Source: Euglena gracilis
Lineage: Eukaryota
Reading direction: 5' to 3'
NCBI GenBank assembly: GCA_039621445.1
Contig: CP154954.1
Coordinates: 13,076,716-13,140,715, forward strand
DNA: 64,000 bases
The translations under genes were made by a program, and so were the position numbers. Shown piece by piece: positions 2,906-64,000 of the stretch. The stretch's first letter is position 1, and every line of letters begins with the position of its first letter. Below the pieces are notes generated by a model. That model saw nothing but the letters and a program-made list of their open reading frames with translations. It did no database searches and was not told the DNA's origin.

Positions 2906-4561
2906 ATAAGTTAGGATTCCACTTTTGCAATAGACCCCCTGAAAAAAGGACATTTTTTATTTACATTACATTAATATCACATTTACGTTGATATTTATTT
3001 TATGACCAAAAAAATGGTTACAAAGCGCCAAAAAAAGGTTAAAATTGACGGTTTTTTTTTGCGTTTTTTGCTCATTTTTACGCATTTTTGCACATTTTTT
3101 TCGAGGCCGGGCTAGTGCATCCCCCCCCCCAGGGCTCAGGGTCCAAATAAAAGCGCACCTCCTGTTATTGAACGCCGCGAAGCGCACCGCCATTTTGATG
3201 GTAGTTCTGAAGGAAATCAACAAAAATTAGACAGGTAGGGTCCAAATAGAAGCGGACCCCCTGTGTTGGAGGTGGTAGTCCACTATAAACGCACCCTCAC
3301 TTCAATTAGGAGAGGGGGGTTAGTGGTCGTTGCACCAGGGGAGAGGGAGGCATGATCTGCTTACTCATGTCCATGGGTATCAGTGCATTTTTTTTTTGAA
3401 ATTTCATGCCCCACCCCCTTACCAACCGACTACCCTTAAATACCGACCACCCGGTCAGGGTTTGCCTGTTACGCTGTATATATGAGAGCCCCCCCCCCTC
3501 GTTGGGCGTTGTAGGAACCTGGTCGATGGGCAAGGGGTGGGTGGGGGCAGGTACCAGACGGATTTGAGCACTGGCCTTGCACCATGCTCCTTGTCATCAG
3601 CACTAAAATGATTTGGCTTGTGGAGACGCTTGGAGCCGTGGTCCGCAACGCAGCGTAATGCAGTGTACGCTTTGCGTACCCTTCAGCTCAGTTGGGCATG
3701 GGCATTCGTCCTTCCCCCCCCCTTCCTCAGTGCTCTCTTGCTGTGCGAATGCGCCAAGGTCCGGCATATTGTGTTTGAAAACCCCACCCAGAACGACAAA
3801 TATTTGTGGTTTTCTGGTTGAGACCATGGGCCAGTCTCACATCGCACGCATATTCACTCACGCAACCATTTACATCACGGAAATAATAATAAGTGATAAT
3901 GTGCATACCTCTCTTTTGTGGCTTTTCATTGTTATCGTACCCCCTTGAGCTATCAAAACCACAAGCGAGGCTTCCCAAATGTTTGGCTTCAGGAATTATG
4001 GGAATCGTGTTACATTCGTCCCACACAACCCAGCAAACCTGGAAACGTTTAAAAGAGGCCTACTTGCTGTATGGCCGTCCCACAAAAGCTCCCTCTGGCC
4101 TGGAGATTTTTCCAGCATTTAAATAGAGTTTGAGTTTTGACAATTTAACAGCACACATTTTTCCCGTTTTTGGTGTGGATGGCCCAGGGGAAGGGAGTTT
4201 TATGTTTGGTGTTGTATTGTGGATTGTTGGATAACGCTAACCCTGACCCTGACTCTAACCCTAACCTGTGTTATCGTGTGACGAGGGCAGCCGTGAATCT
4301 TTCCCGGGTTTGAATGAAAACACCTTTTCCAGACTGCGGTTGGAATGAAGTTGCGTCCGATATTATTATTGTCTTCCTTCCGATCTTGTTATTGTCCTCT
4401 CCATGGAGGGTCGTACACCGCCATGGGTTTCAGCACTAAATCGACCAGGGTGCTGTCAGTCCCATATTCCCCTCAAGAACATTTATGGCCTGAGTTGGCC
4501 GACACAGCCTGGCCTGACTTGGGTAATATTTTCATTTTCCCGTGCTTGATGGTATACATTC

Positions 4562-4831: not shown

Positions 4832-6796
4832 ATACATTCGGTCCCATACGTGCTGGTTTTTCACGTTGGGAAGTTCGCCTCCCCTGGTGTCGGAGGCTGC
4901 AGGTGCTTGGGAGGAGCAGGAGCTTGACCCGAGCACACAGCGGCGATGGGCTCGACCGGCACACCACCGGTAGAGACTGCCTTGACCCTGCTGCAGCTGA
5001 ACCCGGGAACAAAACCCGGAGATGGTAGCCCCACCTGACCCCGACTTGCTGTCCCCGCACGATAGCAGGTTGGCAAAAGCAAGTTCTGGTTTCCAACTTC
5101 GTCCGTGTTGATTTTTTGTCTCATCTTAGGCAAAAATGAATTATTGGGGTGATTGTTTTCTCCAGAAAAAAGCTGCGTTCCAAGAAAATGGCATTGACAC
5201 AGGAGGGGTGGGGGCGCATCCTGCTCCTTAATGAGGGCAGTGGGAAGGAGCGTTTGGGCTCTGGTCCCAGCGTTCACTTCTGAAGAATGACGATGAACGC
5301 ATTGAACGAATGAACGAATACAAGACTGTTTCCATGAGACAGCCTTTGCTGCAGCTGGGAGCTCAGGTCGCTGGGTTGAGGTTGCTTCCTAAAACTTCTT
5401 CACAATTGCTGCTCACAAAGGTGAAACGAGGGAGGGTGAAAGGGCGGGTGTCTGTGATGCGTTGAGAGTGGACGTTGCCAAAAACCACAAATTTCTGATG
5501 CGAGGAAGGCTGTGGAACAGGATCCTCGGCCTGCACATCCTCCGGCTCTGCAACGCTGAAATCACGGACCTCAGAGGAACAGCGACATTGGGTGGCAAAC
5601 AAAACATGGCTCACAAGCAAGCAGCCCTGATGATGCTGGCGCTGCTGGGCGATGCTGGTTTTTTGGAGGCCAGAGGTGGGGTTCCGGTGCTGGGCGATGC
5701 AGGCCGACCGGGGGGGGGGATTTGAACGGGAAAAAATCTTGTGGAAAACTTCTGGATGAAATGTGAAAATTTTGTTTGAAGGTTTTTTCGCACCATTTTT
5801 AAGGATCCGTGGTAATGGTAATTTAGGAAGAATAGTCAATTTCTTCTTGTGAACACCAAAAAAAATTATTTGGCGCTTCGCGCCAATTCTGGGAACAAAC
5901 TTTTGTTCCAAATCACCTGTTTAAATGTGCACTGATCATCCAAAATGAAAGAATATATTTTATTTGCTTATTTTGAAATTTTGGAGTTTAGGATTTAACC
6001 ATTATTTGAACGTTGTATTGGAGGAAACCTCGGAATTTTGATGTGAATTCTGATGGCTTTTTCTGAGAAATGGGTTCAGAAGTTTTTTCCGTCCAGAATT
6101 CTTGGCCATTCTTCGGATGAATTTTTGACAATTTGGGGCCATTTTGTGATAATTTGGGGAGTATTTGGCTAATTTGGGTCAATACGAAATGTGACAGCGG
6201 TGAATATTTGGCTAATGTTTGGTTAATATGAAATGTTATGGCCAGGATGCAGACACTGGAGAGTGGCTGGAGAGGATGCAGATATTTGAGTGCATGCAGT
6301 TAGTGCAGGTGTCGGAAGTAACCCTCCCCCAAATAAAACTCCCCAAATAATCAGGGCGGTCCATAAGGGAAGTTCTTTTCCCCTAAAGGACCGCCCCTTA
6401 AGGACTGCCCTTTGGCCTAAGGGACGGCCAACGGCCGATCTGAGAATCGAATGGGGTCGGGTGGATGCGCGATGGTCCAAGGACACCAGAAATCACTTTT
6501 TCCCCCCAAAATCGACCCATTTTCGATATGGCTTTTTTTCGTCAGTTTTCCCTATTGAATTTTCGTTGAATGTGCTGGGACGGGAAGTTTTTTTTTTCGT
6601 TAAATTTTTTTTCCCTGCAAATGATACTCCCCAAATGATTTTCAAAAGAAATAATGATGCCTCTCCGACCTGTATTTTCACCAAAAAAAAATGTGGTTGA
6701 AAATCAGGATTCATGGCGATAAATGACCTAAAAAAATGTGGGTTTTTGTTGACCATGGGACACAAATATGTCAGTTTTTGCTTTAATAAAGTGGGG

Positions 6797-7324
6797 TGTT
6801 TTTGGGTGGTTATTTTGGGTCGTGTTGATTTTTGAAAGTTTTCGAAAATTTCGAAAAGAAATTAAAAATGAATGATACTCACCCCAAATAATGCCTCCTT
6901 GGACGGGGATTTCAGGCGAAAAAATCCCCCGGGGGGCATTATTTGGAGCAGACCATCATTTAGTGCGTATCACAACGTATCTGTGATACATTAATTTTAT
7001 TTTGGTGATACATATGTTAAACACTTAAAAAAATTTGGTGATATATATGTGATACACAATTGTTTTTGGGTGGTTATTTTGGGTCGTGTTGATTTTTGAA
7101 AGTTTTCGAAAATTTCGAAAAGAAATTAAAAATGAATGATACTCACCCCAAATAATGCCTCCTTGGACGGGGATTTCAGGCGAAAAAATCCCCCGGGGGG
7201 CATTATTTGGAGCAGACCATCATTTAGTGCGTATCACAACGTATCTGTGATACATTAATTTTATTTTGGTGATACATATGTGATACATTTAAAAGAATTT
7301 GGTGATATATATGTGATACACAAA
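6797..7324 (+). repeat. Near-perfect tandem duplication, unit about 264 bp
   Basis: TTTGGGTGGTTATTTTGGGTCGTG... occurs at 6801 and again at 7065. Confidence 0.9.
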
Positions 7325-8352
7325 TTTTTTTGTCTTTTTTTGTCAGCAAATTTCTCAGCCGCTCCTTCCAAAGGGAACCTTAAAAACGCGGAAGACAGGA
7401 TTCCGAGACAACAATTCCTCCAACCATTGACAAGAGTACACCCCACAAATAATACCCCCCGGGGTATTATTTTTCGCCCGAAGTCCCCCGAGGGGGGGGG
7501 GTATTATTTGGGGAGGGGTATTATTTCCCAAAATTTTTCGAAATTTTTCGAAGTCCCGTAAGTCCCAAATAGCACCCTTTGGGGTCATTTTTTGTACTTT
7601 CTCATAAAATTTAGCATTTTTGGAGGCCAGATGATCAAGAAAAATCGAAATTTTTCGTAGTTTGTTGTCAGAGATTGTTATTTTTACCCAACTTTTCAGG
7701 TCAAAATCCGGGTCGTCGGCCCGAGATTTGGGGGTGTTAATTCGGTGGCCGAAGTCGGACCCCGTATGGGGGAGTATTATTTGAGGGGGTGTTATTTGGG
7801 GGGAGGGTCAACCTCTTCCCTCCCGGGCGCTTGGCCCGGGCCATGATTGAAGGTAAAGCCAGGGGGCTAACCTTAGGGGGGCCAAGTTTGCATGTTAAGA
7901 ATTTTGGCGGCCATGTGCAAAGGGCCAAAAGCCAATTTTAGGGGGTTAAGTTTGCATGTAAGGAGGAGTGGGGCCAAGCGCCCGGGGGGGGGGGAGGTAA
8001 TCATTATAACCCCGACTACAGATTGGAAAAACTTTTGCCGGGGGAATTGGCGAGTCGTAACACATTGCCGAAAGCATTATCACAAGAAAAATGTTCCAAT
8101 TGTCTGCAGAGAGGCAAAGAAACAAGGATGAAAAGCGGAACAGAAAGGGGAAAAAACATTTTGATGTAAAAAAGGAAATGTTTATGAAAAAAAATTGGTG
8201 ATACACATGTGATACATAAAAATTTTATTGGTGATACATATGTGATACATTAAAAAAATTTTGGTGATACATACGGGATACATTAATTTTTAGGGTGTGA
8301 TACATGTGATACATAAAAAAAATTTTGGTCATATATACTAAATGGAGGTCTG
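7213..8352. mobile_element. hAT-like element with GTGATAC subterminal repeats. The left end is duplicated at 6949
   Basis: TIR CAGACCATCATTTAGT/ACTAAATGGAGGTCTG, perfect TSD ATTTGGAG. Confidence 0.85.
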
Positions 8353-9844: not shown

Positions 9845-12800
9845 GTCATTGATTCACTTAACACCCGTTTTGCCCCCCCAGGAGGGGTATTCGGGAATGG
9901 GTGGGTGGGTTGGGCCCTGGAAACCCCCCGGTGGGGGTCAGATTTTGGCCCGGCCGCAAAAAATTTTTCGGCATTTTTTTTTGGGCTGGGTTTTGGGTGG
10001 GTGGGTGGGTGGGTGGGTGGGTGGGTGGGTGGGTGGGTGGTTAACCCCCCAGGGCTCAGGTTGTGGGAGGGTGGGTTTTCAAAAAAAGCGGGTGGGTTGG
10101 TTTGGGCCCGAGGAAAAGGGACCCCCCGGTATGCCCCGGTATGGACACTAAGTGAATCTGTGGTCCGGGGCTGTGGGTCTGACCGCCGCCCCCGGGCCCC
10201 TCACACGCTGCTCTGCTGTCGACCGGTGACCAGCCACGACGGGAGCGCTTTAATTTGGTGTTCTCCGAGGTTGACATTTTCTTGGCCAGGAAGGCTTCCC
10301 GGGGGATAGCCAATTTGATAGTTTGTGTCAACGAGCAGAGAGATATGATTGCTGTTGTAGACTGGTTGGTGCCAAGGTTTCAGAGTTCCAAGAAGAAAAT
10401 GTATTAGCAGAAAATTGTCTTATAGCAGCGACAGTGGTGATGGTGATGGTGGTAAATGTGGAGACAATACATGTGGTGATGACGGCAGTATCATTCGCCC
10501 CAAATAATTTCAGCGGGAATGTGCGGTGCATGAAATATGCGGTACAAAAATTGGCGCAAAGTGGTAATTTGAAAAAAGGAGTAAAAATAGCAAAAATAAA
10601 AAATAAAAATGACCTTTTTTGAAGGTCATTTTTGGGTTATTACCTCAAATTTTTGTTTTTCAAAAATGCAACTCAGCTGGATTTGGGCTTTTTTTGCCTG
10701 TTTTCGGGTTCCAGTCCATCCCCAGCAGCTGGTAGACCCCCCAACCTTGACCCCCCAAGGGGGTTTCATAAGCACCTTTTTTTTGGCAGCACCTTCCGAA
10801 CGGCCGGCTGGATCCTCCAGGGGTCCAGAAGAAACTCCCTTGTCAGCGTATTGTCCCTATTATCCCTATTGTCCAGCGTTGGGGACAATAGGGAAACCAC
10901 ATTAGACCTCATCGGTATTTCTAAACTCACAGAACGAGTTGCCCTCCGGACCCGGCTTAGCAATAGGGGGATACGCGGAACGCATTTTGTGGATGTTTCG
11001 CATATTTGGCGCATATTTATTTCTGGACATATTTCTCATATTCTACATATTTTCAATTATTAGTATTTTTTTTCCAAATTTGAATAAGATTTTGTGGTTT
11101 TCTTGAAATTCTGCAAATTTCTGCAAAACACCAGATATTATCGCAAAAATTTTGAGTTGCTTTGATTTTTTTTCTTTTGTGCAAAGACAGCTAAACCCCA
11201 GACATCTGTGAAAAAATTGTCTTCTTATTATAATTTATCATGGATCGGTGTTGTAGCAGACAACAATTGTTGTGGTGAATTTTCTGAATAGTTAGCGCAT
11301 ATTTAGCACATATTCTTATATTTCCATTTTTTTTGCATATTTAGGTCCCCAAAATTCCCCCCCCACCCGGTCTTCGGTTTTCCTTTTTTTTTCTGTTCAT
11401 TTTAAGTTTCACAAAACGCCCACCGGGATGCAATGGTTTTCCTGTCTACTACCCTCCATGTGGCCCGACGCCTTCCCACTGCTGAATGCCTTCCCACGTA
11501 TTCACTAACCCTTGTCCCAGGGTGGTGGGTAGGTAGGTTTTCGGGGTAGGTGGACATGGGGGGCTATTGAACCCCTTCCCACTGAGCAGGTGGGTTACAC
11601 CTGTCAGTACTGCATCCAGTTAATCTGGGTCAGTCAAATATCCGCACAGAATATTGCAAACGTTTTCGTGCCATTTTGGGTGTGTTTGCAGTGGGTGGTT
11701 GTTTGAGTCTACTCCCCTTGGACAAGCTCCTGTAAAATGACTGGGTGTGACTGGGCGTGACTGGAAGTGACTGGTTCTGAGACTCTGACCATAGCACATA
11801 GGTGCTTGCCCTTTGACGGGGGGTCTGGACTAAAAAAGGGAATTTTTCATAACCAAAAAATATTCCAGCAAAATTCCAAAAAAAAACCCGGGAAAAAACG
11901 TCAAAAAAAAAAGCCCGCAAATTTTGCCAAAATCGAAAAACACAAAAAAAAACACAACAGCGTGTTTGCGTTTGTCCCCCGTGCTGTAGTAGTTCCCCCC
12001 CTTGCCCGGTTCCCGCCCTGATAATGATAATAGTGGGTGGGCAGGTTTGCTGGGACAGTGTCCACCTTCCCTGGGGGCTCGCCAAATGGATCCGTGGTTT
12101 TGGTCCCGCCCGAACGCCCACTGCGGTTCCCCTGTCTGGCTGACCCCCAACCCTGCGTTGCGTTCCTGCCCTGGTCCTGGTTTGGCTTGGTCTGACTGGT
12201 CAACCGGGAAATATCCGCAGAAATGAATCCGGTGTTTCAGGCAAAGCTTTTGGGAAAGTTCGAGAATTGTGTCTTTTCGAACGGTGTAAAGTCTATTGCA
12301 TACTAAAGTATAATAAAGCTTATTGAGTAATAAAGCGTAAGAAACAGTAGTTACACATAAACCAACAATTTGTTTTCCCCCCATTTGTTATTCAGTTTCA
12401 AGCTGCAGTTCATTTTGATGTGTTTAATATTTTTAATGCTCGGTTTGGATGTGGCAAGCATTGCGGATATCGATCAAATCCTGTTTACCAAGAAGTGCAT
12501 TCCGCATTCTGCGATCCTCATTGTTTCCCGTTCTGATGCGCAATTTCCTTGTTGCCACCGACAGCTCCTCTCCGCCTTCTACTCCTTCCTGGCAACCCCC
12601 CAGCGGCAGGGCTGAATGGGAATCCCAGAAACGCTGCCCCCCCCCTGCCAACGACCACCATATTCAACGACCACACAGTCGGGGTTGCAGGTCAGGGGGT
12701 GCGTACAACCACCCCTCCTGGTCGGGGGTTATAGGAATCTGGGGGTGGAGCCCCTCACCACTTCCCGTTTCCAGAAACCGGAAATATTCTGGGAAAAAAG

Positions 12801-18692: not shown

Positions 18693-19118
18693 CAGGCTTC
18701 TTTTTTTGACCCCCCGGGGGGTCCCCACCCACCCACCCAGGGTGGCGCGGGACCCCCCCGGGGGGCGGGGACCCCCCCAAAATTGGGCCCGTTAAAGGCA
18801 ATTTTCAAAGTTCAAAAGGTATACCCGGCACCTCCGGCGCGGGACACCCCCCCCGGCCCGGACCCACACCCCCCTCCCCCGGGGGGGGGGGGGGTCACAC
18901 CAACCACACAAGGTGAGTGTATGTCCCTACAGCGCTGGAATTACACCAGAGTTACTCACCCGACCAGGGGGAGCAACAAAAGAGGACTGGTGTAAGGGGT
19001 CCCTGGCCACTCACCACGCAGCAAACTGGGCCAGAAGCGAAGTTAGCGCCGGCCATAAACAAACAAGAAGCCTTAGTGCAACTAAGGGGGGGGGTCAGGT
19101 GACTTAAAAAGAAACCTG
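18693..19118. mobile_element. hAT-like MITE inserted in a (GTAT)n tract
   Basis: TIR CAGGCTTCTTTTT/AAAAAGAAACCTG, perfect TSD GTATGCAT. Confidence 0.8.
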
Positions 19119-20196: not shown

Positions 20197-22006
20197 AAGC
20201 ACGGGGCACCCCCCAGGCTGTACGGGAACTGTATGGGGTCCATAAAAGGACCGAGCCCCCCCCCCTCTCCCCCAGCCCTTCCCATATTTTTGGGCTTGCG
20301 CGGTGCTGAGGCGGTGGGGGGGGCAGGGAGTTTTGAAACATTGGACCCCCTGGGGGGGTTGGGTTGGTGGGTATGCTGGACCCCCTCCCCCTACCCGGGG
20401 GGTACCCCAAAGGCCTTTTGGTCCCCTGCCAAAGGAGGGTGTTTGGCCATTTTTGGCTTTTTTAATTTTAACCCTAAATCGGCCTCCAAAAATGGGTCCC
20501 TTGGACCCCCCCGAGTGGGGGCAGTGGGTACCCCAGGGCAGAACGGGAATCGGCCGAACAGCCAGGGTGTTGGGGGGGGGGGGGTCGACCCCCCCCCCCA
20601 CCCCCTGCATGGTGGGTGGGAGGGGATCGACCCCCCCACCACCTCTTCCCATATTTCCGGGAGCACCAATTTTTGGGCCCGAAAAAATTTTTCCGGCGCC
20701 TTCGGCGCCGGGTGTTTTTTTTTTTGACCCATTTTGGGACCCATATAGGGGGGTCACTCCAAAAACCACCCAAAACCCCATTTTTTTCACACCTTCCAAA
20801 AATTCAATATTTTTCCAAAATGTTGATTTTGAGAGGTTTTTGAAGCAAAAAATGTCAAAAAAATTTTCAACGAGAAAAAATGTCAGTAAAATTTGATTGT
20901 ACCAAAATTTTGTCCACTTTTTTTGACCTTCGTTTTTTTTCGCCCCCCTCCTAAAAACTACCAATTTTTAACCCAGAATTTTTTGGGATTTTTTTGTGAG
21001 AAAAATGTGGTTTTCCATCAAAAATCATGTGTTTTGGGTTCATTTTTCAAAAAAATTCAAATTTTTTTCTGGCCTAAATACATTTTCCCGAAATCGGTGA
21101 AAATGCTGTGGTGGGTGGGGGGGGGTCGACCCACCCCCCCACCTCCCGGGTGGGGGGGGGGGGTCGACCCCCCCACCAGGCCTTCCCGTTCTGCCCTGGG
21201 GTACCCCCTGGTTGGGCCCCCAGTCTTAAACAGAGGGGGATATGCGGAGCGTATATTTTGCGCATATTTTGCATATTTAGCCCATATTCAGCATATTCCG
21301 AGGGTTTTCAGGATTTTTCATCCACATATTTTTCCCATTCCCGCACATTTTTTGCTTTTTTTTTGCATCGTGTTGGGGCCATTTTCAAAATACTTTAAGC
21401 CATTTGCTTTCATTTTCAACTTTTGGACATTTTTTAGTATTTTTGGGCCATTTTTGGCATTCTGAGCCACCACTGTTGGCCATTTCTGGTCTTTTTTTTT
21501 TTGGCCACTGTTGGCAAATCAGCTGTTCTTTTGGTCATTTGGGCCATTTCCATCGCAAAATCATGTTTATTTGCTGAAAATGGCCAAAATTGGATGAAAA
21601 TGGCCCAAGGGCCTTCAAACTAGTTTAAATGGCCCAAAAATGTTTCGAAAAGGTCGAAAATGGTCCGAAAGCCGCTGATCGTGGTGATTATGGGCTGGAA
21701 TGGCCCCAAAATGACCCAAGATGGCTTGAAATGACTTGCCGGTTGGGTCACCTGAACTTGTCCAAATATTGCCCGATCTGGAAGAATCGCACGTTTTCGC
21801 ATGTTTTTCTGCACATTTGGCGCACATTCCCGCATATTTTGCCTAATGGGCCTATTGGGGTGCGGGCTTTTAAGCAAATTCCCCCCCTGTCAAAAAAAAT
21901 CCTGGGGGGTCAGCCCCACCAGGCCTTCCCATCCCGCCGGGGCATACCTCAACACCGGCAATTACGGAAACCCTGTGTTGTGCCGACGATCCGTGTCCGT
22001 GTTGTT
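20197..22006 (+). other. Predicted nonconventional intron
   Basis: AAG-CACGGGGCAC ... GTGTCCGTG-TTGTT|G. Stem from +4/-6, R at +1, Y|R, in-frame join F-G-PGAARR. Confidence 0.5.
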
Positions 22007-24015: not shown

Positions 24016-27000
24016 GGACGGGTCTCCCCTCGCCCGGGCACCGAGTGTTTGTTGGTTTTTGTGTAGGAGGAGGTGAGAGAGGGGCCCGCCCACCCCCCTC
24101 TGTCTCTCTGTATGGGATCCCCCCAGGGTGGAGGGGGGATCCGGATCACACCCCTCTGGGGTCTGGGGACCAAAACCCTGGAACCAAAACATTTTCTTCC
24201 CCGGCGCCATGCCCCAGAAGATTTATGTTTTTATCAGCTGTATTTGTCAATTTGGAGAAAACTCACCAGAAAACCGCAATTTTGGGTCTCCCACAAAAAT
24301 TTTGTGGTGTCGCATGGTGTTTTTTCTCCGACCCCTCCCGGATGGGGGTCATGCCAGCCAGCAGCCTTCTTCAGGGGGGGAAATGCGTTGCGCATTTTCC
24401 CACATTTTTGCGCCTTTTTTTTGCGCATTTTTTGCACATTCCCCCCCCATTTTTGCACATTTTCCATTTTTTGCGCATTTTTTGGGGGCATTTTTTTTGC
24501 CATTTTGCACATTTTCCATTTTTTGCACATTTTCCACCCAAATCACATGCTCACCGAATTTTGCCGACGTTCAACTGACCCATTTCTGTAACCAACCAAC
24601 CGATTTTCGCACTTTTTTTCCACCCAAGGGACCCGCCTCAAGAGAAAACCCTTGGATGATGAGGTGTGGGTACTCATCCAATGACGATGAGGACATTGGG
24701 GGTTTCAGAGACCCCACATTGACACGTAACCAAGGCGGGAATCCCACTCCCCTGGTCACAAGTAAGGGGCAACCATCGCTGACATTGTTGGTTATGGTGA
24801 ACGGAGAGTGACGCCTTGGTCATGCATTTTTTTTGGCCTAAATGCCTTCATTTCAGCTCTTTTTGGTGATTTTGGTTTAATTTTGGGTTTACTGTTGGAA
24901 ATTTTTCCAAGTCCTTTTTCCCTAAGGAATGTCACAAACTCAGCGCATTTTTTGCGCATTTTTTTGCGCATTTTTGCGCATTTTTTCTGAGGGCTGTCCA
25001 GCGCATCCCCCCCCCCTGCTTCTTCCAGCCAGCAGCCCTGGACCCACTCCACACAGGTTTTTAATTATTTTCCAGCCGCCCGAAAGGCGGTCAGACGGTA
25101 ACGGGTTTTTGGCTTTCAGGGGTGCAAAAATTGGGCGAAAATGGGCTAAAATGCGTCGGACTTTGGCTGGCCAGGGCAAATTTTGGATAAAAAAAAATCC
25201 ATTTTGCGTTTTTGGGGGGGGATTTTTGGTGTTTCGGTTTTTGGTACCTGCTTCGACCCCAGCTCGGGCCCAGTTCCAGCCGGGGATCCCTATGGGGGGG
25301 GTCCGCTAGCAGCCTTTTTCCAGCCAGCCTTAATTTTCCAGCCTCTGAGCTGGACCCCCCGGGTCACTAAGCGACACCCTGCTTGGAATTTCGCCTGTTT
25401 TTTTTTGAACCATGATCAAACACCGTGCTGACTGATGGTTGTGGGGGCGTGACTGGACGTGACTGGATCTGTGATTCTGGAGGACTGCACCCACCCCCCC
25501 CCCTTTGTCCAAAAACAAGCCATTTTGCCATTTTGGCAAACCCCCCGTGTCCATGCCATGCGCACAAGGAGGGGGAGGGAAGGGGAGTCAGGTGTGTGTG
25601 CAGGAATCTTTACCCTGCACGGTGGCCGAGGTCCAGCCAGCCTTCTTTTGGTATTGGCGCAAGCTTGTTGTGGCGAATGCGGGTGCCATTGGTTTGGGGC
25701 CTCAGGTGGAGTGGGAAGCCACGGGAAGTGTTTGCGGGGGGGGGGGATGACGGCTGCCTCCAGCCGCTGCCAGACCAGACCACAATTCAGGGTCTCAAAA
25801 TCGAAAGTGGTTGGGTCGCGGTTGGCCGCAGCTCAACCCTGAACCAAATTTTTAGTTGGGACCGCGGCCGGCTGGCCCAACCAACGGCGGCCCTTCCTCT
25901 CGGGAGTGACCTCCCCGGGGGATGCGGGGATTGTGGGAGAAAGATGTGCACAGAACACGGAGAGAAAGAGGAGTCAGGGCTGCGGCGGCTGCGAGCTCTG
26001 GCAATGGTTTCTCCCGGATGCCTGGGGAGTGGGGCAGGCGCGCTGCAGACCCGTGCCCCAAGGGGGGGGTCAGACCCTCCCCTGTCTCTGACCGCCGCTC
26101 TCAGAGTGTGCCGCACATCCTGGATACCGAGGCAATGCCGCTAATCCCAAAGCGCTTGCCATGCCAGCATTGCCCGGTTTTGAGGGCGAAGTTTGCTTTG
26201 GTCTGCGGCATTCTTAATGACACGCAGGGTCATTAAGAACCCTGCAGCCCAATCCAGCCCTATCAGGGGTCATGATTCAGGGGAAGGGTGAAAGGAATAG
26301 CATTTATTTATCTGGTGACTGCATCCCAAGGAGTTCTCACCCATGGAATTGGGAGAATTTTATGGCATTAGCAGTCCTCGCTGCATCGGAATGTTTCAGG
26401 GTTCTGGTGCTAGCTCACCTGTGGCAGTTTCACAGAGAGGGAATGCTCTTTTCCACAGTCTTTGTGTGTGCTCGATTTCACCATTCCAGTCAACGTTCCA
26501 TTTCTAGGGGTGGGCAATCCCAACGATAGCGCCTGCCTGGTTACCCCGATGCGATACTCAACAGTCCAGACAATTTTCATTCCGCGGATTATCATACCCC
26601 CCAGCAGAATGGCAGTGCCTGCTTGGGTAGGCACCCTGTGCATACTGGGACCCCCCAACATGCCCCCCCGGGGAGGTTGGTCATACTCAGCCTGCTCGGA
26701 GAGCAAGGCGTGTGCGGGGGTAGGACTCCGCCGCGCTTTGCCCCCGCCGCCCGCCAAACCCCCACACCCTCCGCCGGCACACGCTGCATGACTCACGCCC
26801 ACGGTTGTATGGGAAGCTCCGCAGATATAAGGTAGGTGGCAGGGGGGGGTCACCCTCCCCCTTCCAAAACTAGGAGGGGGTGTGGAGAACCCCCACCTAC
26901 CCCCAGTTTTCAGTCGCCGAAAACTTCGGCAGTTTTTATGGGGGTCAAATTCATCAATTTTTTTGAAATTTCTCAAAAATGGCAGGAAAGCAGAGGAAAT

Positions 27001-41492: not shown

Positions 41493-43591
41493 CATCGACC
41501 AACCCCCAAAACAACCCAAAAAGGGGTGGGGGTTGGTCAGTGGGCTGAGCAATGGTGACCATTTACTCAATGTTTTCATTTAACCCAATGTTGCTCCAAC
41601 CCAACAACCTAAAATTTCAGAATCCTATGCGTGATATCAGGAGAATACCCAAACCCCCCAAAACAGTACTTTCCCGCACCCCGACCCCCATATACCCCAC
41701 CCTTACCCCGCGCCGCTAAACAGCCCACCCTGGGTCGAGCTCAAAATCTGGAAAATTTGGTCCAGTCAGGAAAAGGCTGCTGGCTAACCCCAATCCCCAT
41801 CCCACCCTACATTTGGGGTCAAATCCGGTGTCAAAACTTTTAACCGGAATAACCGGAATAAAAGTGCCAGCCAATGGCTTGAAAATTCTGCAAGGCACAA
41901 GGCAATGAAGGTGAAGTTTGATATATTTTCAGGTTTCAAAATCAAAAGAGCAACAAAAGAGTGGAAGCATAGCACAGTCGGCACTTAATATCTGATGCAC
42001 ACCTCACCTTTGGCTGTTTCCCCCCCTAATTGAATGCATTTTTTGTTTGTATTTTATCCCCATTTGTGGGGCTGCAATTAGTGAATGTTTGTCCCTGAGT
42101 TCTTTTTAAAGGGACATGAACTAGGACAATATCAACGCCGATTTTTGGGGGCAGGGATCCCATTGAACAAAGTGAATCATCTTTCAATCAGGGGGTAATA
42201 ACACTCTTAGGCGGCCTAATTCGCACTTAAGGTTTTGACATTTGCATTGCGCAAAAAAATTGCACTTTGAAAAAGGTTCAAAAACCCAGGTTTGAATGCC
42301 AGGACACGTGAACAGCAACACCAGCCTAACTCGCATTTAGCTTTGAAAGTGTAAAATTGCGCCGACGCGCAATCTTGCAAAGAAGTTATGTTATCGAACA
42401 CCGAGGTCTGAGACAGTCCGAATTAGTGTCTCCCTACCCCCAGGGCCTGGGGACGAACATAACGACTTGGACATCTACAGTGTACGGACACAGGGCTCCC
42501 TGGGCCCTGTGTGCATAACCCCTAAGCGCTGGGTAATGAAACGAGGGAACTCCATTGCGCAGTTGCGCCATGGCGCAGAATTTTTTCATTACAAAAAAAA
42601 TATTGCGCTTTGGCGCAATGTTTTTTATTGTAATTCTAAATAATAATGCGCATTTGCGCAATAATAACAGCATATGCGTCAACGTGTGTTTTCATTGCGC
42701 ATCCGCAAAGAAAACACGCTCATGTAGAAAGAAAATTTAAGAGTTATATTGTGACATGGCGCAATAGAAATACAAATTTCAAAATTCAGGATTAGCATGG
42801 CTGTTGCGTCGAAGCGGACACCGCAGCAGGCAAACCTTCACGAACAGATTGTAGAGCCTAAAAAGCAACAGAACGGGCCAAAAGTCACCTGGCTTGTGTA
42901 GCACCATCTGGGGAACACAGTCGAGGCTTCAAAAATGAGGGAGACACAATTGGGCCTAAGATAAGGTGTACACCCAGCGGGACAATTTTTGGGAAGAAAA
43001 CAGACAGCGGTGCCAGGGACCCGCCTCAGGAGAAAACCGCGAGCACCAATTTTCATCGGCTTGTTTGTCCCCGGAAAGGCCGGGGTCTGCTGTGGTGTGC
43101 AGACCTGCATCACCAAGTGCGAAGTGACCACTTGGTGGGGTGGGGCAAGCAAGGAATGCAAATCTATTCCTGAAGCCCGGGTGAGCGCCTCGCCCAATTG
43201 TGCTTCGAAAAATCCTAAGTCCATTCAGACAGAAATTGACCGGAATAAACCGGAATAAATTCCGGAATAAACCGGAATAACCCGGAATAAACCGGAATAA
43301 AACACCGGAATTAAATTTTCGGCCGACCGGAATATCTCCCTGCCCCCCCAGATTTTGAGCTCGACCCAGGGTGGGCTGTTTAGCGGCGCGGGGTAAGGGT
43401 GGGGTATATGGGGGTCGGGGTGCGGGAAAGTACTGTTTTGGGGGGTTTGGGCATTCTCCTGATATCACGCATAGGATTCTGAAATTTTAGGTTGTTGGGT
43501 TGGAGCAACATTGGGTTTTAAATGCTCACCATTGCTCAGCCCACTGACCAACCCCCACCCCTTTTTGGGTTGTTTTGGGGGTTGGTCGATG
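41493..43591. repeat. About 250-bp near-identical inverted repeat pair (41493-41751 and 43348-43591) with CCGGAATAAA arrays
   Basis: Direct reverse-complement match. The ORF track shows near-identical peptides on opposite strands (ISGE.PNPPKQYFPAPRPP). Confidence 0.9.
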
Positions 43592-49984: not shown

Positions 49985-50233
49985 CAGGGATTTTATAGTC
50001 GTGGACCTGGGGGGGGCCGGCCGGGCTCCGGCCGAGCCCCCCCCCCCCCCGGGGGGGTCCCCCCAGAGGGGGGTGGGAAATACTTTTCGGCCGAAAATTT
50101 TTGAAAAGGCGCTATTTTTAGCACTTTTCGCGATTTTTGTGGGTCCCCCGGGACCCCCCCCCCCCGGGGGGGCCCAGGGGGTGGGTAGGTGGGGGGGACC
50201 CCCCTCCCCCCCGGTCTTAAAAAAAAAACCCTG
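49985..50233. mobile_element. hAT-like MITE (family B)
   Basis: Ends CAGGGATTTT/AAAAACCCTG, perfect TSD TGTGAGAC. Confidence 0.9.
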
Positions 50234-59286: not shown

Positions 59287-62200
59287 GAGATGGCGAAGAG
59301 CCTGCGGCTCACCTCCACGAAGGGCGACGAGCAGGCGCGCCGCCGCCGCCGGTCCAGCGTGTGGGAGTCGTTTGAGGAGTCTCGCCCAGGCCGCCGGCCG
59401 GTGACGGAGCAGAGCGGCAGAAGGGCCTCCTTTTTGTGAATGACCTTATTTTGTGTCGCTGTTTGGGGTCCCTCCGAAGTGCAGGGGTGGTGTTGGCCGG
59501 ATGCGTGCGGGTTTTATTTGCCTGGTTTTGTCTGGGTGGTTCCCCGGTTGTTGCATTGGGCATCAGGCTGTAGTTTAGTCGGGTCAGGCCGACCCCACCC
59601 CAGGGGGGGGGGGGGTGCCTGCCTGGGCAGGCTCTCCAAGACTTCCAATCCGACCCCCCAGGGGGGGGGCACACGGCCAAAAGTGCCCTAGCACAGCCCC
59701 GGCGCCAAAGGCGCCTGGGAGCCAAAAAAAATAGCCTATTTTCAAAGGAATGTGCCTGGGCACAGGCCGAAATCCGACCCCCGGGGTAGTGCCTGCCTGG
59801 GCAGGCACTCAAAGGCACTCCGGACCCCCCCCTCCCCCCCGTGGTTGGTAAAAAAAACAGCCTTTTGGACATCGTTTTGGGCATTCGCCAGGTCAATTTC
59901 CAGATGGCCATTGCAGCGTCTTTTCAGTCCCTCCATAGATGTTTGCCTTCGCTTCTACTGCTATTTTGTTTCGCATTATTGGAGGGAGGGCCTCGCACTC
60001 CCAGTCGCCGCTGCCTGGCCGGCGCACGGTGACCACCAAGTCGGGCAGCATGCGGCGCATCACAGAAGCGGCATGCAGTTGCGTTTCTGTAGATTTTGCC
60101 AATGCATCCCCACCCCCCGCGAGGACATCTCTGCCTTCATACCGGAGGTGTCCCAGGTGCTGTTTGGAATCATTTGTTGGTATTGACGGTGTCTTGTCCC
60201 TTTTTTGGTGTGAGAAGTCATCGCGAAACGTTGCCGTCACACGTCCAACCTGTGCACACCGTGCTTGGCCTCTGGGTACCCCAGCACCGTGTCATCTCCA
60301 CAGAGGCAGAAGGGGGTCTCGGCGTTGGAGCAGGCGACCAGCTTGAACAAGACGCTGCAGGTGCTGTACCTGGAACCCAGGCCGCGGCCCGCGCAGGGCA
60401 TCGTGGGGGCGCATTACTACCCTGGCTCATCCAAGGCACTGGTTGTTGTTGACGCACGGCACACGCACGCGCTCACACACCACACATGCTGACGCACACA
60501 ACACTCAACACACAACACGCACAACTCTCTCTCACACACACATCTCGCACACAACACATAACACACAGACACACACGCAACACGCAACACACACACACAC
60601 ACGCAACACAACACGCAGACCCAACACACACTCACACACATCCACAGATGCATGTACACACACACACACGTGCTGAATAGAGCCCCTTCCCGAAGCGACT
60701 AAAAGGACCCCTTCCGAGGAGGAGGAAAAAGCTTGGTAAATACACGATGTTCGTCTGAGGCCTGAGATGAGGAGTCAGAGCACATTTCTTCCATCGATGC
60801 AGGGTGGGCCAGCACAAGATGTTTTTTTTTACGAAAGGTATTTACGTTGACCACGGAGCCGAAGGCCAAACTTTACCAAACTTTCAAGTAAAGTCAATTA
60901 ATTTTGCTCCATGTTGGCCAAATGGCCAGAGTGATGGCCCCTGTGGGAGGAGTGGGGCTGCAGCAACGTGCCGCTGCGTGCGGGCGTTGCAGGAGAACGC
61001 ACTGCAGTTGCACCAACGGCTGAGCGCCGTGATGCAGACGGTCAGCCCAGCCCTCGCGAGGCGTGTGCCTCGTGGGTCAGCCCCATCCGTCCCCCCCTCG
61101 CCGGTGGGCTCGACGCGAGGATATAATAGTACAATGGTTTTGGGTGGGGGCCACCAACCGCCCTCCCAAAATAAAACCCTCCAAAATAATACCCAGAGCA
61201 ATACTTTTTTTTATATAAAAAAAGGGTTGACACCCCCCAAAATGAGACCTGATATTTTCATTGGTTTCATTTCAAGTTTTTTGTTGGGTGGCGTCCGATG
61301 CCTGATTTGTCGGTCTCCTTGGGCTCACAGCGGGGGCAGGGCCTCTCATTGGCTGTTGTGTGAGGGTCCAGTAAAAATGTGCTGGTCCACATTTTTGGAT
61401 CAGCCAAAACAAGGCCGGAAGGATTAAGGAAAAAATTCGTCCATCATAAACGTTCTTTTACTGCACATCCTGAACCGCAAGTTCCCCGTCAAGCAACAAA
61501 CCCTCATTGACACCTGATTGCAACCCCAGCCAAAGGCCTCCCACCCAGGGTTTGATATAAGGAGGGCGTACATGGTTTAGGTGGGGGGTGTCCCCACCCC
61601 CCCCCCCCTCCTGGCCCGCAGGGGAGGTCCGGAACGCCCCCCCCCACCTGCCAGGGGGGTCCGGACCGACCCTGGGGGGGTATCCGGGACCCCCCTCAAA
61701 AAGGGTCATTTTTTTCCTCCGGCGCTTCGCGCCGAGAATTTTTTGCCTTTTTGGCACATTTTTGTCCAAAAAGTGCCCAAAATGGCACTTTTGGTCGTTT
61801 TGGGGGTCAAATATTTTCGGTCACTCAGACCGCGCCACTGTTTAGATGGGGGGGGGTGTCCCCCCCACCCCCCCCCTCCTGGCCCGCAGGGGGTGGGGTC
61901 CGGACCACCCCCCCCCCACCTGTCCTTATATCGAACCCTGCTCCCCCCCACGCATTCGAATGCTGCTTTTCAGGCCCCGGCCGGCCCACCCCCGCCGGGG
62001 GGTGCCCAGGCACTCCGGGGCCTCCGTTCCCACCGCAGCCCATCGTCCGCCGCCGAGGACGGGCCGCCGCCGCTGCGAGCCACGCCGCGCAGCCGCCACC
62101 AGGGCGCCGCGTAAGACGAGGGGCACCCCATTACCGGGGGGGGGACTTGTGCGGGAAAAAATGTTGTGGGAAGAATTCTGGACGAAATTTTGTCCAGGAT

Positions 62201-63105
62201 TTTTCCCGCCTTTTTATAGATCCGTCCAGGATTTTTCCCGGCAGATTTAAGGAAAGTCCAATGTCCTCCAGTGAATGACCCCCCAAAAAAATCTTCGGCG
62301 CTGCGCGCCGATTCGCAGCAGGAATATTCATAATTTATAAGTTGTGTGCCAGGAACCGCTTCATGTCTGTCAACACAGCGGCCTTATCACCCCAGCGGAA
62401 CGTACGAATGTGCGCTTTCTGTTTGGTTTCACAGGTGCAGCCATGCTTTCTCATTCAATTGTCGGTTGGCGCAAAACCTTTGTGTTTTTTTTTTCAGCTG
62501 TCTTATATTTTTTCCCACCTGGTTTAAGCGAGCGTTCAGGACTTTTCCCGGCATTTTAAGGATTCGTCCAATATTTTTCCCGGCAGAATTTTTCCCGTCG
62601 GCAATTGTTCCCGGTCAGATTCCCCCCCCCCCCGGTACCGGGGGTAGGGGTTCCAGCCAACGGCTTTTTCCCAGCCTGGACCCCCCCTTTTTTTGTTTGT
62701 AGCCACCACGAGTCGAAAGGGCAGCTCGGCAGCGATTTTTTGCTTTGGTGAGGGTGCAAAAAAAATGGGTCAAAAATGGCAAAAATACAGGTCAGAACAG
62801 GATGGCCAGGGCAAATTTGGGATCAGACAGTCATTTTTTTCATAATTAGCACATTTTTCAGGGCAGCATTGCAGAGTCGACATTTTGCACCCATTTCAGC
62901 CCGGGAACCCCGGTGGGGGGGGGGGGGTAGAGGGTCAGGAATCGTTGTCCCGCCAGCCTAACGCTGCCACGCCTCTTCCCGCCTTAACCCCTTCCCTCCA
63001 GGGGGCGGAGAGGTTAAGCGACCCCCTGGCCGCAACGCCGCCCTCCTGGCAGCCCTGGCCAACGACGCCGCCAGCATGGGCAAACTGGCTGGGGCGCTGG
63101 ATCGG
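59287..63105 (+). CDS. Continuation of the gene. Exons about 59287-59400, 60005-60070, 60304-60434, 60964-61040, 61974-62096, 63034-63105. The gene continues past the window end
   Basis: GC3-rich islands [110 protein letters not shown]. Some internal boundaries are ambiguous. Confidence 0.6.
59564..59864. mobile_element. hAT-like MITE related to family A
   Basis: Ends CAGGCTG.../...CAGCCTT, TSD TTGGGCAT/TTGGACAT. Shares internal GGTGCCTGC and GGTTGGTAA motifs with 4562-4831. Confidence 0.75.
61546..61940. mobile_element. hAT-like MITE
   Basis: 18-bp TIR CAGGGTTTGATATAAGGA/TCCTTATATCGAACCCTG, TSD CTCCCACC/CTCCCCCC. Confidence 0.85.
62097..63033 (+). mobile_element. Predicted nonconventional intron that is also a hAT-like TIR element (62100-63028) plus one TSD copy
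   Basis: GCCGCCAC|CAGGGCGCCGCGTAA ... TTAAGCGACCCCCTG|GCCGCAAC. TIR 12/15, TSD 7/8, in-frame exon join. Confidence 0.55.
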
Positions 63106-63121
63106 GTATGTGCGCTGGTGT

Positions 63122-64000
<879 letters not shown>

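Follow-up and report, generated by a model that had tools for sequence, protein, structure and literature searches.

We analyzed a 64,000-nt stretch of the Euglena gracilis genome (assembly GCA_039621445.1, contig CP154954.1, forward-strand positions 13,076,716 to 13,140,715), hereafter the window, numbered from its first letter. The window consists mostly of interspersed repeats, together with one short-exon gene that is supported by RNA at the 3' end of the window. The subject of this report is one intron of that gene, at 62097-63033, which is removed as a euglenid nonconventional intron and whose body probably derives from a DNA transposon that landed in an exon. A first-pass annotation made from the sequence alone had predicted this intron and had described it as a young insertion that is still a transposon.

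Splicing of the intron at 62097-63033

The intron and the exons on either side of it are arranged as follows.

62037..62096, plus strand: upstream exon in the transcript (start at 62037, or at 62039 if the AG is given to the preceding intron); its last 5 nt, GCCGC, recur at the intron's 3' end
62097..63033, plus strand: nonconventional intron of 937 nt that opens with CAC-CAG and closes with CTG-GCCGC, ahead of the exon base A
63034..63105, plus strand: downstream exon; the next intron has a GT-type start at 63106 and carries a (GT)n array

Splicing was examined at 60690-63110 using the raw RNA-seq runs X21 and X24, the contig set X16 (guessed to be RNA) and the DNA contig set X1. One X16 contig (record 9; 2659 nt, depth 23) was found to match 60986-61058 with its positions 1029-1101 and 63029-63105 with its positions 1157-1233. 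The 55 letters of the record between these listed pieces were assigned to 62037-62091 from the depths of the 81-nt bins, in which a value of 8.52 corresponds to depth 23 over 30 nt and a value of 7.63 to depth 23 over 25 nt plus 3 nt of another contig. The contig joins 62091 to 63029 and skips 62092-63028. Since GCCGC stands on both sides, this junction gives the same mRNA as a junction of 62096 with 63034. Because three introns are skipped, the X16 contig represents a spliced transcript whatever the label of its library; past 63105, its loose end continues into other sequence. RNA run X21 displayed one-strand depth in the same exon bins only (1.3, 2.84, 2.63, 2.38, 0.86 and 5.12), and its depth was 0 on the unique part of the intron at 62634-62876, compared with about 5-7x on the exons. 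The contig junction and the exon-only depth bear out the in-frame junction that had been predicted, and 62097-63033 is a spliced euglenid nonconventional intron.

A conventional GT-AG intron had been offered as an alternative in the same annotation, using the GT at 62111 and the AG at 63000-63001. Both dinucleotides exist, but the X16 contig joins 62091 to 63029 and not 62110 to 63002. The bin at 62958-63038 has an X16 depth of 2.84, equal to depth 23 over 10 nt, and the cover therefore starts at 63029 rather than at the AG-defined position 63002. Further, a GT-AG splice in the transcript-supported frame would meet a stop codon at 63015-63017. The sites at 62111 and 63001 are unused, and a conventional intron at this position can be set aside with near certainty.

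The upstream exon had been given a start at 61974, after TTTTCAG; the transcript contig enters the exon at 62037 or 62039 instead. When the translation of the exon as first annotated was searched against longer target proteins, none of the 377 candidates reached E ≤ 1; about half of this query later proved to be intron. Over the four exon pieces with transcript support, the annotated reading frame runs for 93 codons without a stop. Two frames of the minus strand likewise lack stops, and the strand call thus rests on the splice signals, namely the GT at 63106 and the asymmetric 3-nt and 5-nt spacers, and not on the open reading frame (ORF).

Fit to the nonconventional splicing code

Knock-in mutagenesis has yielded the code 5'-N3CDG-/-CH'GN5-6|R for nonconventional splicing, with a 5' spacer that is intolerant of length changes (Nomura et al. 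2025, PMC12501133). The intron at 62097-63033 has the 3-nt spacer CAC, CAG at 62100-62102, CTG at 63026-63028, the 5-nt spacer GCCGC and the purine A at 63034, as the code prescribes, which places CAG at +4..+6 and CTG at -8..-6 of the intron. The direct repeat permits six equivalent placements of the intron, and the code is satisfied by 62097-63033 only (CAC-CAG ... CTG-GCCGC|A). None of the six placements begins with GT or GC and finishes with AG, so the borders are nonconventional. Both motifs reported as consensus in E. gracilis (Gao et al. 2024, PMC11170887) are also present, namely CCAGG (+3..+7) and CCTG (-9..-6). Nonconventional introns show a pyrimidine|purine border tendency (PMC11282704). 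The C at +1, listed as a caveat in the first-pass annotation, is immaterial under the published code. Nonconventional introns account for 71.8% of E. agilis introns (PMC12501133), and the intron studied here is an ordinary member of a very abundant intron class.

The intron at 60375-60985 is likewise skipped by the X16 contig and starts with ACC-CAG in keeping with the code. It has no CTG at -8..-6, the nearest being at -12..-10, and no junction repeat; it is a nonconventional intron that lies outside the published signature.

Transposon-like architecture of the intron ends

The ends of the intron comprise a terminal inverted repeat (TIR) and, outside it, a direct repeat that is a putative target-site duplication (TSD).

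62092..62099: left 8-bp direct repeat, putative TSD, GCCGCCAC, agreeing with 63029-63036 at 7/8; it consists of the upstream-exon end GCCGC (62092-62096) and then CAC (62097-62099)
62100..62114, plus strand: 5' TIR arm, CAGGGCGCCGCGTAA, complementary to 63014-63028 at 12/15
62100..63028, plus strand: TIR-bounded element proper, CAG...CTG, 929 bp, without a long ORF that has a Pfam match
63014..63028, plus strand: 3' TIR arm, TTAAGCGACCCCCTG
63029..63036: right 8-bp direct repeat, GCCGCAAC, directly 3' of the 3' TIR arm; its first 5 nt (GCCGC, 63029-63033) are the 3' spacer of the intron and its last 3 nt (AAC, 63034-63036) the start of the next exon

These letters, the 12/15 TIR, the 7/8 flank repeat and the positions of CAG and CTG were all present where the first-pass annotation had placed them. 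The two flanking copies, GCCGCCAC and GCCGCAAC, are alike at all of their first five positions. Their sole mismatch falls at position 6, where the intronic copy has C and the exonic copy A; this is the position at which splicing needs a purine. The exon copy may have changed, turning a His codon into an Asn codon, or the intron copy may have drifted.

The background of both repeats was determined. Within the window, 69 of the 66,418 CAG...CTG pairs lying 60-4000 nt apart (0.10%) have a TIR of at least 12/15. When 8-mers of one flanking exon were compared with those of the other, 23 of 3,920 pairs (0.59%) agreed at 7/8 or better. The values observed at the intron are unusual, yet not extreme. 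Because the local chance of a 7/8 match is 0.59%, the GCC-rich coding sequence raises the background of repeats without explaining the match.

CAG...CTG elements with 8-bp duplications in the window

All CAG...CTG pairs in the window that lie 60-4000 nt apart and have a terminal complementarity of at least 11/15 were collected (309 pairs), and their outer 8-bp flanks were compared. The flanks were at least 7/8 alike in 7 of the 309 pairs, with 5 pairs at 8/8 and 2 at 7/8. In controls with shifted flanks, one control gave 0/309, and 210 shift combinations gave a mean of 0.54 and a maximum of 4. No duplication reaches into a ninth base. The pairs at 7/8 are the intron element at 62100-63028 and a MITE (miniature inverted-repeat transposable element) in the upstream intron; the members other than the intron element are as follows.

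6949 or 7213 to 8352: element with a perfect TSD, ATTTGGAG; its left end with flank occurs twice (6949 and 7213)
18693-19118: element with a perfect TSD, GTATGCAT, in an ATGT-rich context
20534-21198: element with a perfect TSD, GGGTACCC, and a TIR of 15/15
49985-50233: element with a perfect TSD, TGTGAGAC
61546-61940: MITE of 395 bp in the upstream intron, with ends CAGGGTTTGATATAAGG and CCTTATATCGAACCCTG (TIR 14/15) and 8-bp flanks CTCCCACC and CTCCCCCC (7/8)

None of the four elements with perfect duplications has flanks of coding appearance. Across the five listed elements, the flanks range from 33 to 74% G+C, and the junction-spanning frames have a G+C content at third codon positions (GC3) of 0.39-0.69; among the five, only 61546-61940 has a GC-rich side (74% G+C, GC3 up to 0.69). 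Of all class members, the intron alone sits between GC-rich exons.

The 395-bp MITE is palindromic to itself (E 6.2e-15) and has 21 further partial matches in the window. Its edges, at 61544-61546 and 61940-61941, are where many DNA and RNA records diverge, and its summed contig depth in X1 is 0.9-2.2 million, about 10^4 times that of the neighboring unique contigs. A metagenome scan with the 18-nt terminus of this abundant MITE returned 17 loci, all of which (17/17) match over 18-22 nt only and were taken as chance. The upstream intron that carries it, 61059-62036, can be placed as a GC...AG intron (61062-62038 after a slide of 2-3 nt).

A scan of TIR pairs with any terminus showed no overall enrichment, as flanks were at least 7/8 alike in 107 of 26,460 pairs compared with 84 in the control, because TA, poly-G and poly-C repeats dominate. 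Complex duplications in that scan were confined to the CAG class and to an element at 41640-43459, described below. A class of CAG...CTG transposons with 8-bp TSDs exists in the window.

A dispersed repeat family that ends on the 3' splice motif

Inside the intron, two parts of the element could be delimited.

62134..62635: nested high-copy MITE, with ends of CC plus a G-run and of a C-run plus GG (inverted repeats), flanked by TA at 62132-62133 and 62636-62637
62651..63028, plus strand: 3' body of the element, belonging to an old dispersed repeat family whose better-resolved copy stops at CCCTG

When 62638-63060 was compared with the window by nhmmer, a match was found at 25024-25394 (E 1.6e-16). 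A two-sequence profile matched 25023-25381, 10572-10837 (E 1.7e-4) and a fragment at 41731-41851. The likeness begins near 62651, and the mean column identity of the two alignments is 74% and 63%. The family was seen with nhmmer alone, as plain blastn of the intron against the window returned internal repeats and two short matches at 74-75% only. The best-conserved block is the very end of the element (TTAAGCGACCCCCTG compared with CTAAGCGACACCCTG), where the terminal conserved block reads TAAGCGAC.CCCTG and the likeness ceases after it in the 25-kb copy; the third copy ends in ...AACTCCCTT. Because the conserved block ends there and the flanks beyond it differ, the 3' splice motif takes its CTG from the end of a dispersed repeat; the next five bases of the intron belong to the host, as a transposon insertion would demand. 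The flanks of the 25-kb and 10-kb copies are not exon-like.

The nested MITE interrupts the element upstream of this body. The contigs of X1 sum to a depth of 76,575-599,408 over 62148-62633, a figure that denotes highly repeated sequence and not copy number, and unique contigs lie on either side (61920-62161 at depth 63.1 and 62609-63110 at depth 77.7, each with 0 differences). Contigs of X16 from elsewhere break at 62145 and 62621, with loose ends in which TA gives way to unrelated sequence; they therefore represent another copy of the nested MITE. A partial copy is present at 5710-5898, with GA in place of TA at its left flank. Without the nested MITE, the intron would be about 433 nt long.

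As a check on its proposal, the first-pass annotation had suggested looking for further copies of the element ends. Such copies were found for the 3' 380 nt, which has two diverged copies in the window, and not for the 5' end, which has none there; in X1, no copy at 90% likeness or more was seen for the 3' end and, apparently, none for the 5' end.

The insertion appears to be old, because the TIR (12/15) and the TSD (7/8) have decayed, a TA-flanked MITE has landed inside the element, and the relatives in the window are strongly diverged. The opposite proposal, that of a young and possibly still mobile transposon copy that has just turned intron, would account for a TIR and a TSD that are still recognizable, and the genome does contain very abundant CAGGG...CCCTG elements, many copies of which are at least 90% alike (61546-61940). 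It is contradicted by the imperfection of both repeats, by the high-copy MITE nested at 62134-62635, by relatives that are 63-74% alike and lack a recognizable 5' end or duplication, and by the single-copy state, at 90% likeness or more in X1, of the 3' end and apparently of the 5' end. Further, the filled site is present in 14 of the 24 runs listed, at no less than 75% of the sampled words. A young copy is thus very improbable, and for this element the description "young" does not hold and "still a transposon" is not supported.

Origin of the intron

The layout suggests a simple route from insertion to intron. An element with CAGGG...CCCTG ends would have inserted into an exon and made an 8-bp TSD. 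In the pre-mRNA, the ends of the element would pair through a CCAGGG/CCCUGG core and further pairs, and the nonconventional machinery would make its cuts 3 nt ahead of CAG and 5 nt beyond CTG, such that ...GCCGC is joined to AAC... in frame. The 5' spacer would then come from the final 3 nt of the left copy of the duplication, and the 3' spacer from the initial 5 nt of the right copy. As 3 + 5 = 8 nt, splicing would take the element together with exactly one copy of the duplication, restore the target and leave the mRNA without a footprint. The proposed cutting, guided by pairing, independent of the spliceosome and releasing the intron as a circle, follows PMC11282704 and PMC12501133; introns of this class are described as leaving in circular form, after the conventional ones.

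Collectively, these data suggest, with a probability that we put at about 0.7, that 62097-63033 is a working intron whose body is the remnant of a nonautonomous hAT-like DNA transposon that landed in an exon, and that this insertion is old. The term hAT-like describes the build of the element and is not a proven family assignment. Of the annotated formula of a hAT-like TIR element plus one TSD copy, the layout and the derivation of the 3' end from a dispersed repeat stand; the transposon reading is well supported for the architecture and the 3' end, and unproven for the 5' end and the superfamily.

The principal rival is a genuine nonconventional intron of non-transposon or unknowable origin, in which the ends would be inverted for the needs of splicing, the GCCGC repeat would reflect chance or microhomology in GCC-rich coding DNA, and the 3' repeat would have arrived later and would stop at the splice motif by coincidence. 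A number of observations speak for this rival or otherwise count against the preferred reading. Terminal pairing belongs to the splicing code itself, and because nonconventional splicing requires such pairing, the inverted repeat does not count as separate support for a transposon. The ends are able to pair (12/15), and the terminal duplex is predicted at -20.6 kcal/mol with a 6-bp core. This energy is unexceptional, as 33% of mononucleotide shuffles and 12% of random CAG...CTG pairs reach it, and the terminal stem is absent from the whole-intron RNA fold in the minimum free energy and centroid structures alike (z = -2.24). In E. agilis, 84.4% of introns of every kind, conventional introns among them, are bordered by short direct repeats (PMC12501133), and a junction repeat is therefore a common feature.

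The copies of the element ends weigh in the same direction. The 5' 34 nt have no relative in the window, where pattern searches returned no plus-strand partner and a 64-nt query matched itself only. No 5' TIR or 8-bp duplication was detected for the 25-kb and 10-kb copies; the best 5' partner candidate for them, at 4191, has a TIR of 12/15 but a TSD of 4/8 and is not convincing. In X1, the 3' terminal 76 nt are single-copy at 90% likeness or more (the bin at 62958-63038 has a depth of 77.7, equal to one contig). The outermost 29-36 nt or so of the 5' end (62097 to about 62125-62132) lie under a unique X1 contig and are seemingly single-copy, in a bin whose value is contaminated by the start of the G-run. 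With respect to a transposase, none of the 168 stop-to-stop ORFs of at least 110 aa in the window scored above any Pfam cutoff, one having sub-threshold hits only, and none of the 15 ORFs of at least 60 aa in the element at 41640-43459 matched Pfam. Finally, the RNA junction was read from one contig of X16, a set whose RNA nature is guessed, together with bin depths.

The rival origin is at odds with the 3' end of the element, where the CTG lies inside the best-conserved terminal block of the family and the homology ends right there. Because the homology stops right after CTG, a 3' repeat that was inserted later would have had to substitute for the earlier 3' splice motif at every base. The low local chance of the 7/8 flank match also argues against this origin, as does the recurrence in the window, well above control, of the same architecture with perfect 8-bp duplications. 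A non-transposon origin is thus unlikely.

Two other transposon assignments were considered and rejected. A Helitron reading of the 3' hairpin at 62983-63018 was discarded, as Helitron termini carry CTRR and the copies are without a CTRR end. The intron element was also not assigned to Merlin, whose TIRs begin with GG (PMC8101967).

Relation to known introns and transposons

The old-insertion reading was compared with three known systems. The splicing signals of the intron are the same as those of euglenid nonconventional introns in general (Milanowski et al. 2014, PMC3935182; PMC12501133; PMC11170887), and include non-GT/AG borders, the CAG and CTG positions, exact 3-nt and 5-nt spacers, a purine at the exon start, ends that pair, and a border that can slide along a short direct repeat. 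What the present intron adds is a specific transposon layout and a 3' end that comes from a dispersed repeat; its +1 base is C.

With nonautonomous hAT elements of the Ac/Ds type, the intron element shares an 8-bp target duplication (7/8 here), short imperfect TIRs that start with CAGGG, a lack of coding capacity and removal from the transcript. The Ac/Ds terminus starts with CAGGG, and the hAT TIR consensus is YARNG. A Ds element that created an intron in maize was reportedly described by Giroux et al. in 1994, a study cited in PMC3935182. In contrast to Ac/Ds, no transposase was seen here, and removal follows the euglenid code and is footprint-free, rather than using spliceosomal cryptic GT/AG sites. 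An 8-bp duplication is also made by P and Merlin elements. Merlin has been reported in E. gracilis, with GG termini (PMC8101967).

The introners of Micromonas, Aureococcus, dinoflagellates and Amoebophrya (PMC11282704) resemble the present case in that a DNA transposon has turned intron, the target duplication helps to set the borders and the mRNA is restored. As described there, introners are present as introns in numerous near-identical copies, most of which the spliceosome takes out, whereas the intron studied here has no near-identical copy of its ends in X1, is spliced nonconventionally and has relatives that are 63-74% alike and lie in flanks resembling non-coding sequence. The set of near-identical introns, spread over different genes, that an introner-like family would have was not found in the window or in X1.

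A MITE-like origin of nonconventional introns, with CAG/CTG as TIRs and TSD-like junction repeats, is discussed in PMC3935182, PMC11282704, PMC12501133, PMC11170887 and PMC12621601. As of 2013, according to PMC3935182, euglenid genomes had yielded no identified transposable elements. Such an origin has been proposed since 2014, without a named transposon family in the accessible papers. A link of the 3-nt and 5-nt spacers to an 8-bp duplication or to hAT was not found in the accessible literature, and subscription papers and supplements may hold it; in the accessible text of the 2024 review PMC11282704, the terms "hAT," "8 bp," "8-bp" and "8 nt" are absent. Against this background, the locus provides a worked example, in which an RNA-verified intron has a 3' motif that is a repeat terminus and borders that equal an element plus 8 bp, beside like elements with perfect duplications.

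We tentatively suggest, at somewhat less than even odds, that the euglenid code may mirror hAT-like transposition at the RNA level. In this hypothesis, the 3-nt and 5-nt spacers would together correspond to the 8-bp TSD of the CAG...CTG MITEs with which these genomes are filled, and most nonconventional introns, together with the junction repeats found at the majority of introns, would descend from such insertions. If this is true, an insertion of this type into an exon would be an intron at once, removed without a footprint, wherever TSD position 6 is a purine.

Other features of the window

A search of the window against Rfam returned 0 families. At 41640-43459 lies a 1.8-kb element flanked by a perfect 8-bp duplication, TGATATCA, with GG-initial TIRs, GGAGAATACCCAAAC and GTTTGGGCATTCTCC (14/15); Merlin elements of E. 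gracilis are reported to have this layout (PMC8101967). Within the gene, a CA-rich array at 60495-60669 follows the exon that ends at 60374, and the (GT)n / (GGTGT)n array at 63124-64000 occupies the next intron as far as the window reaches.

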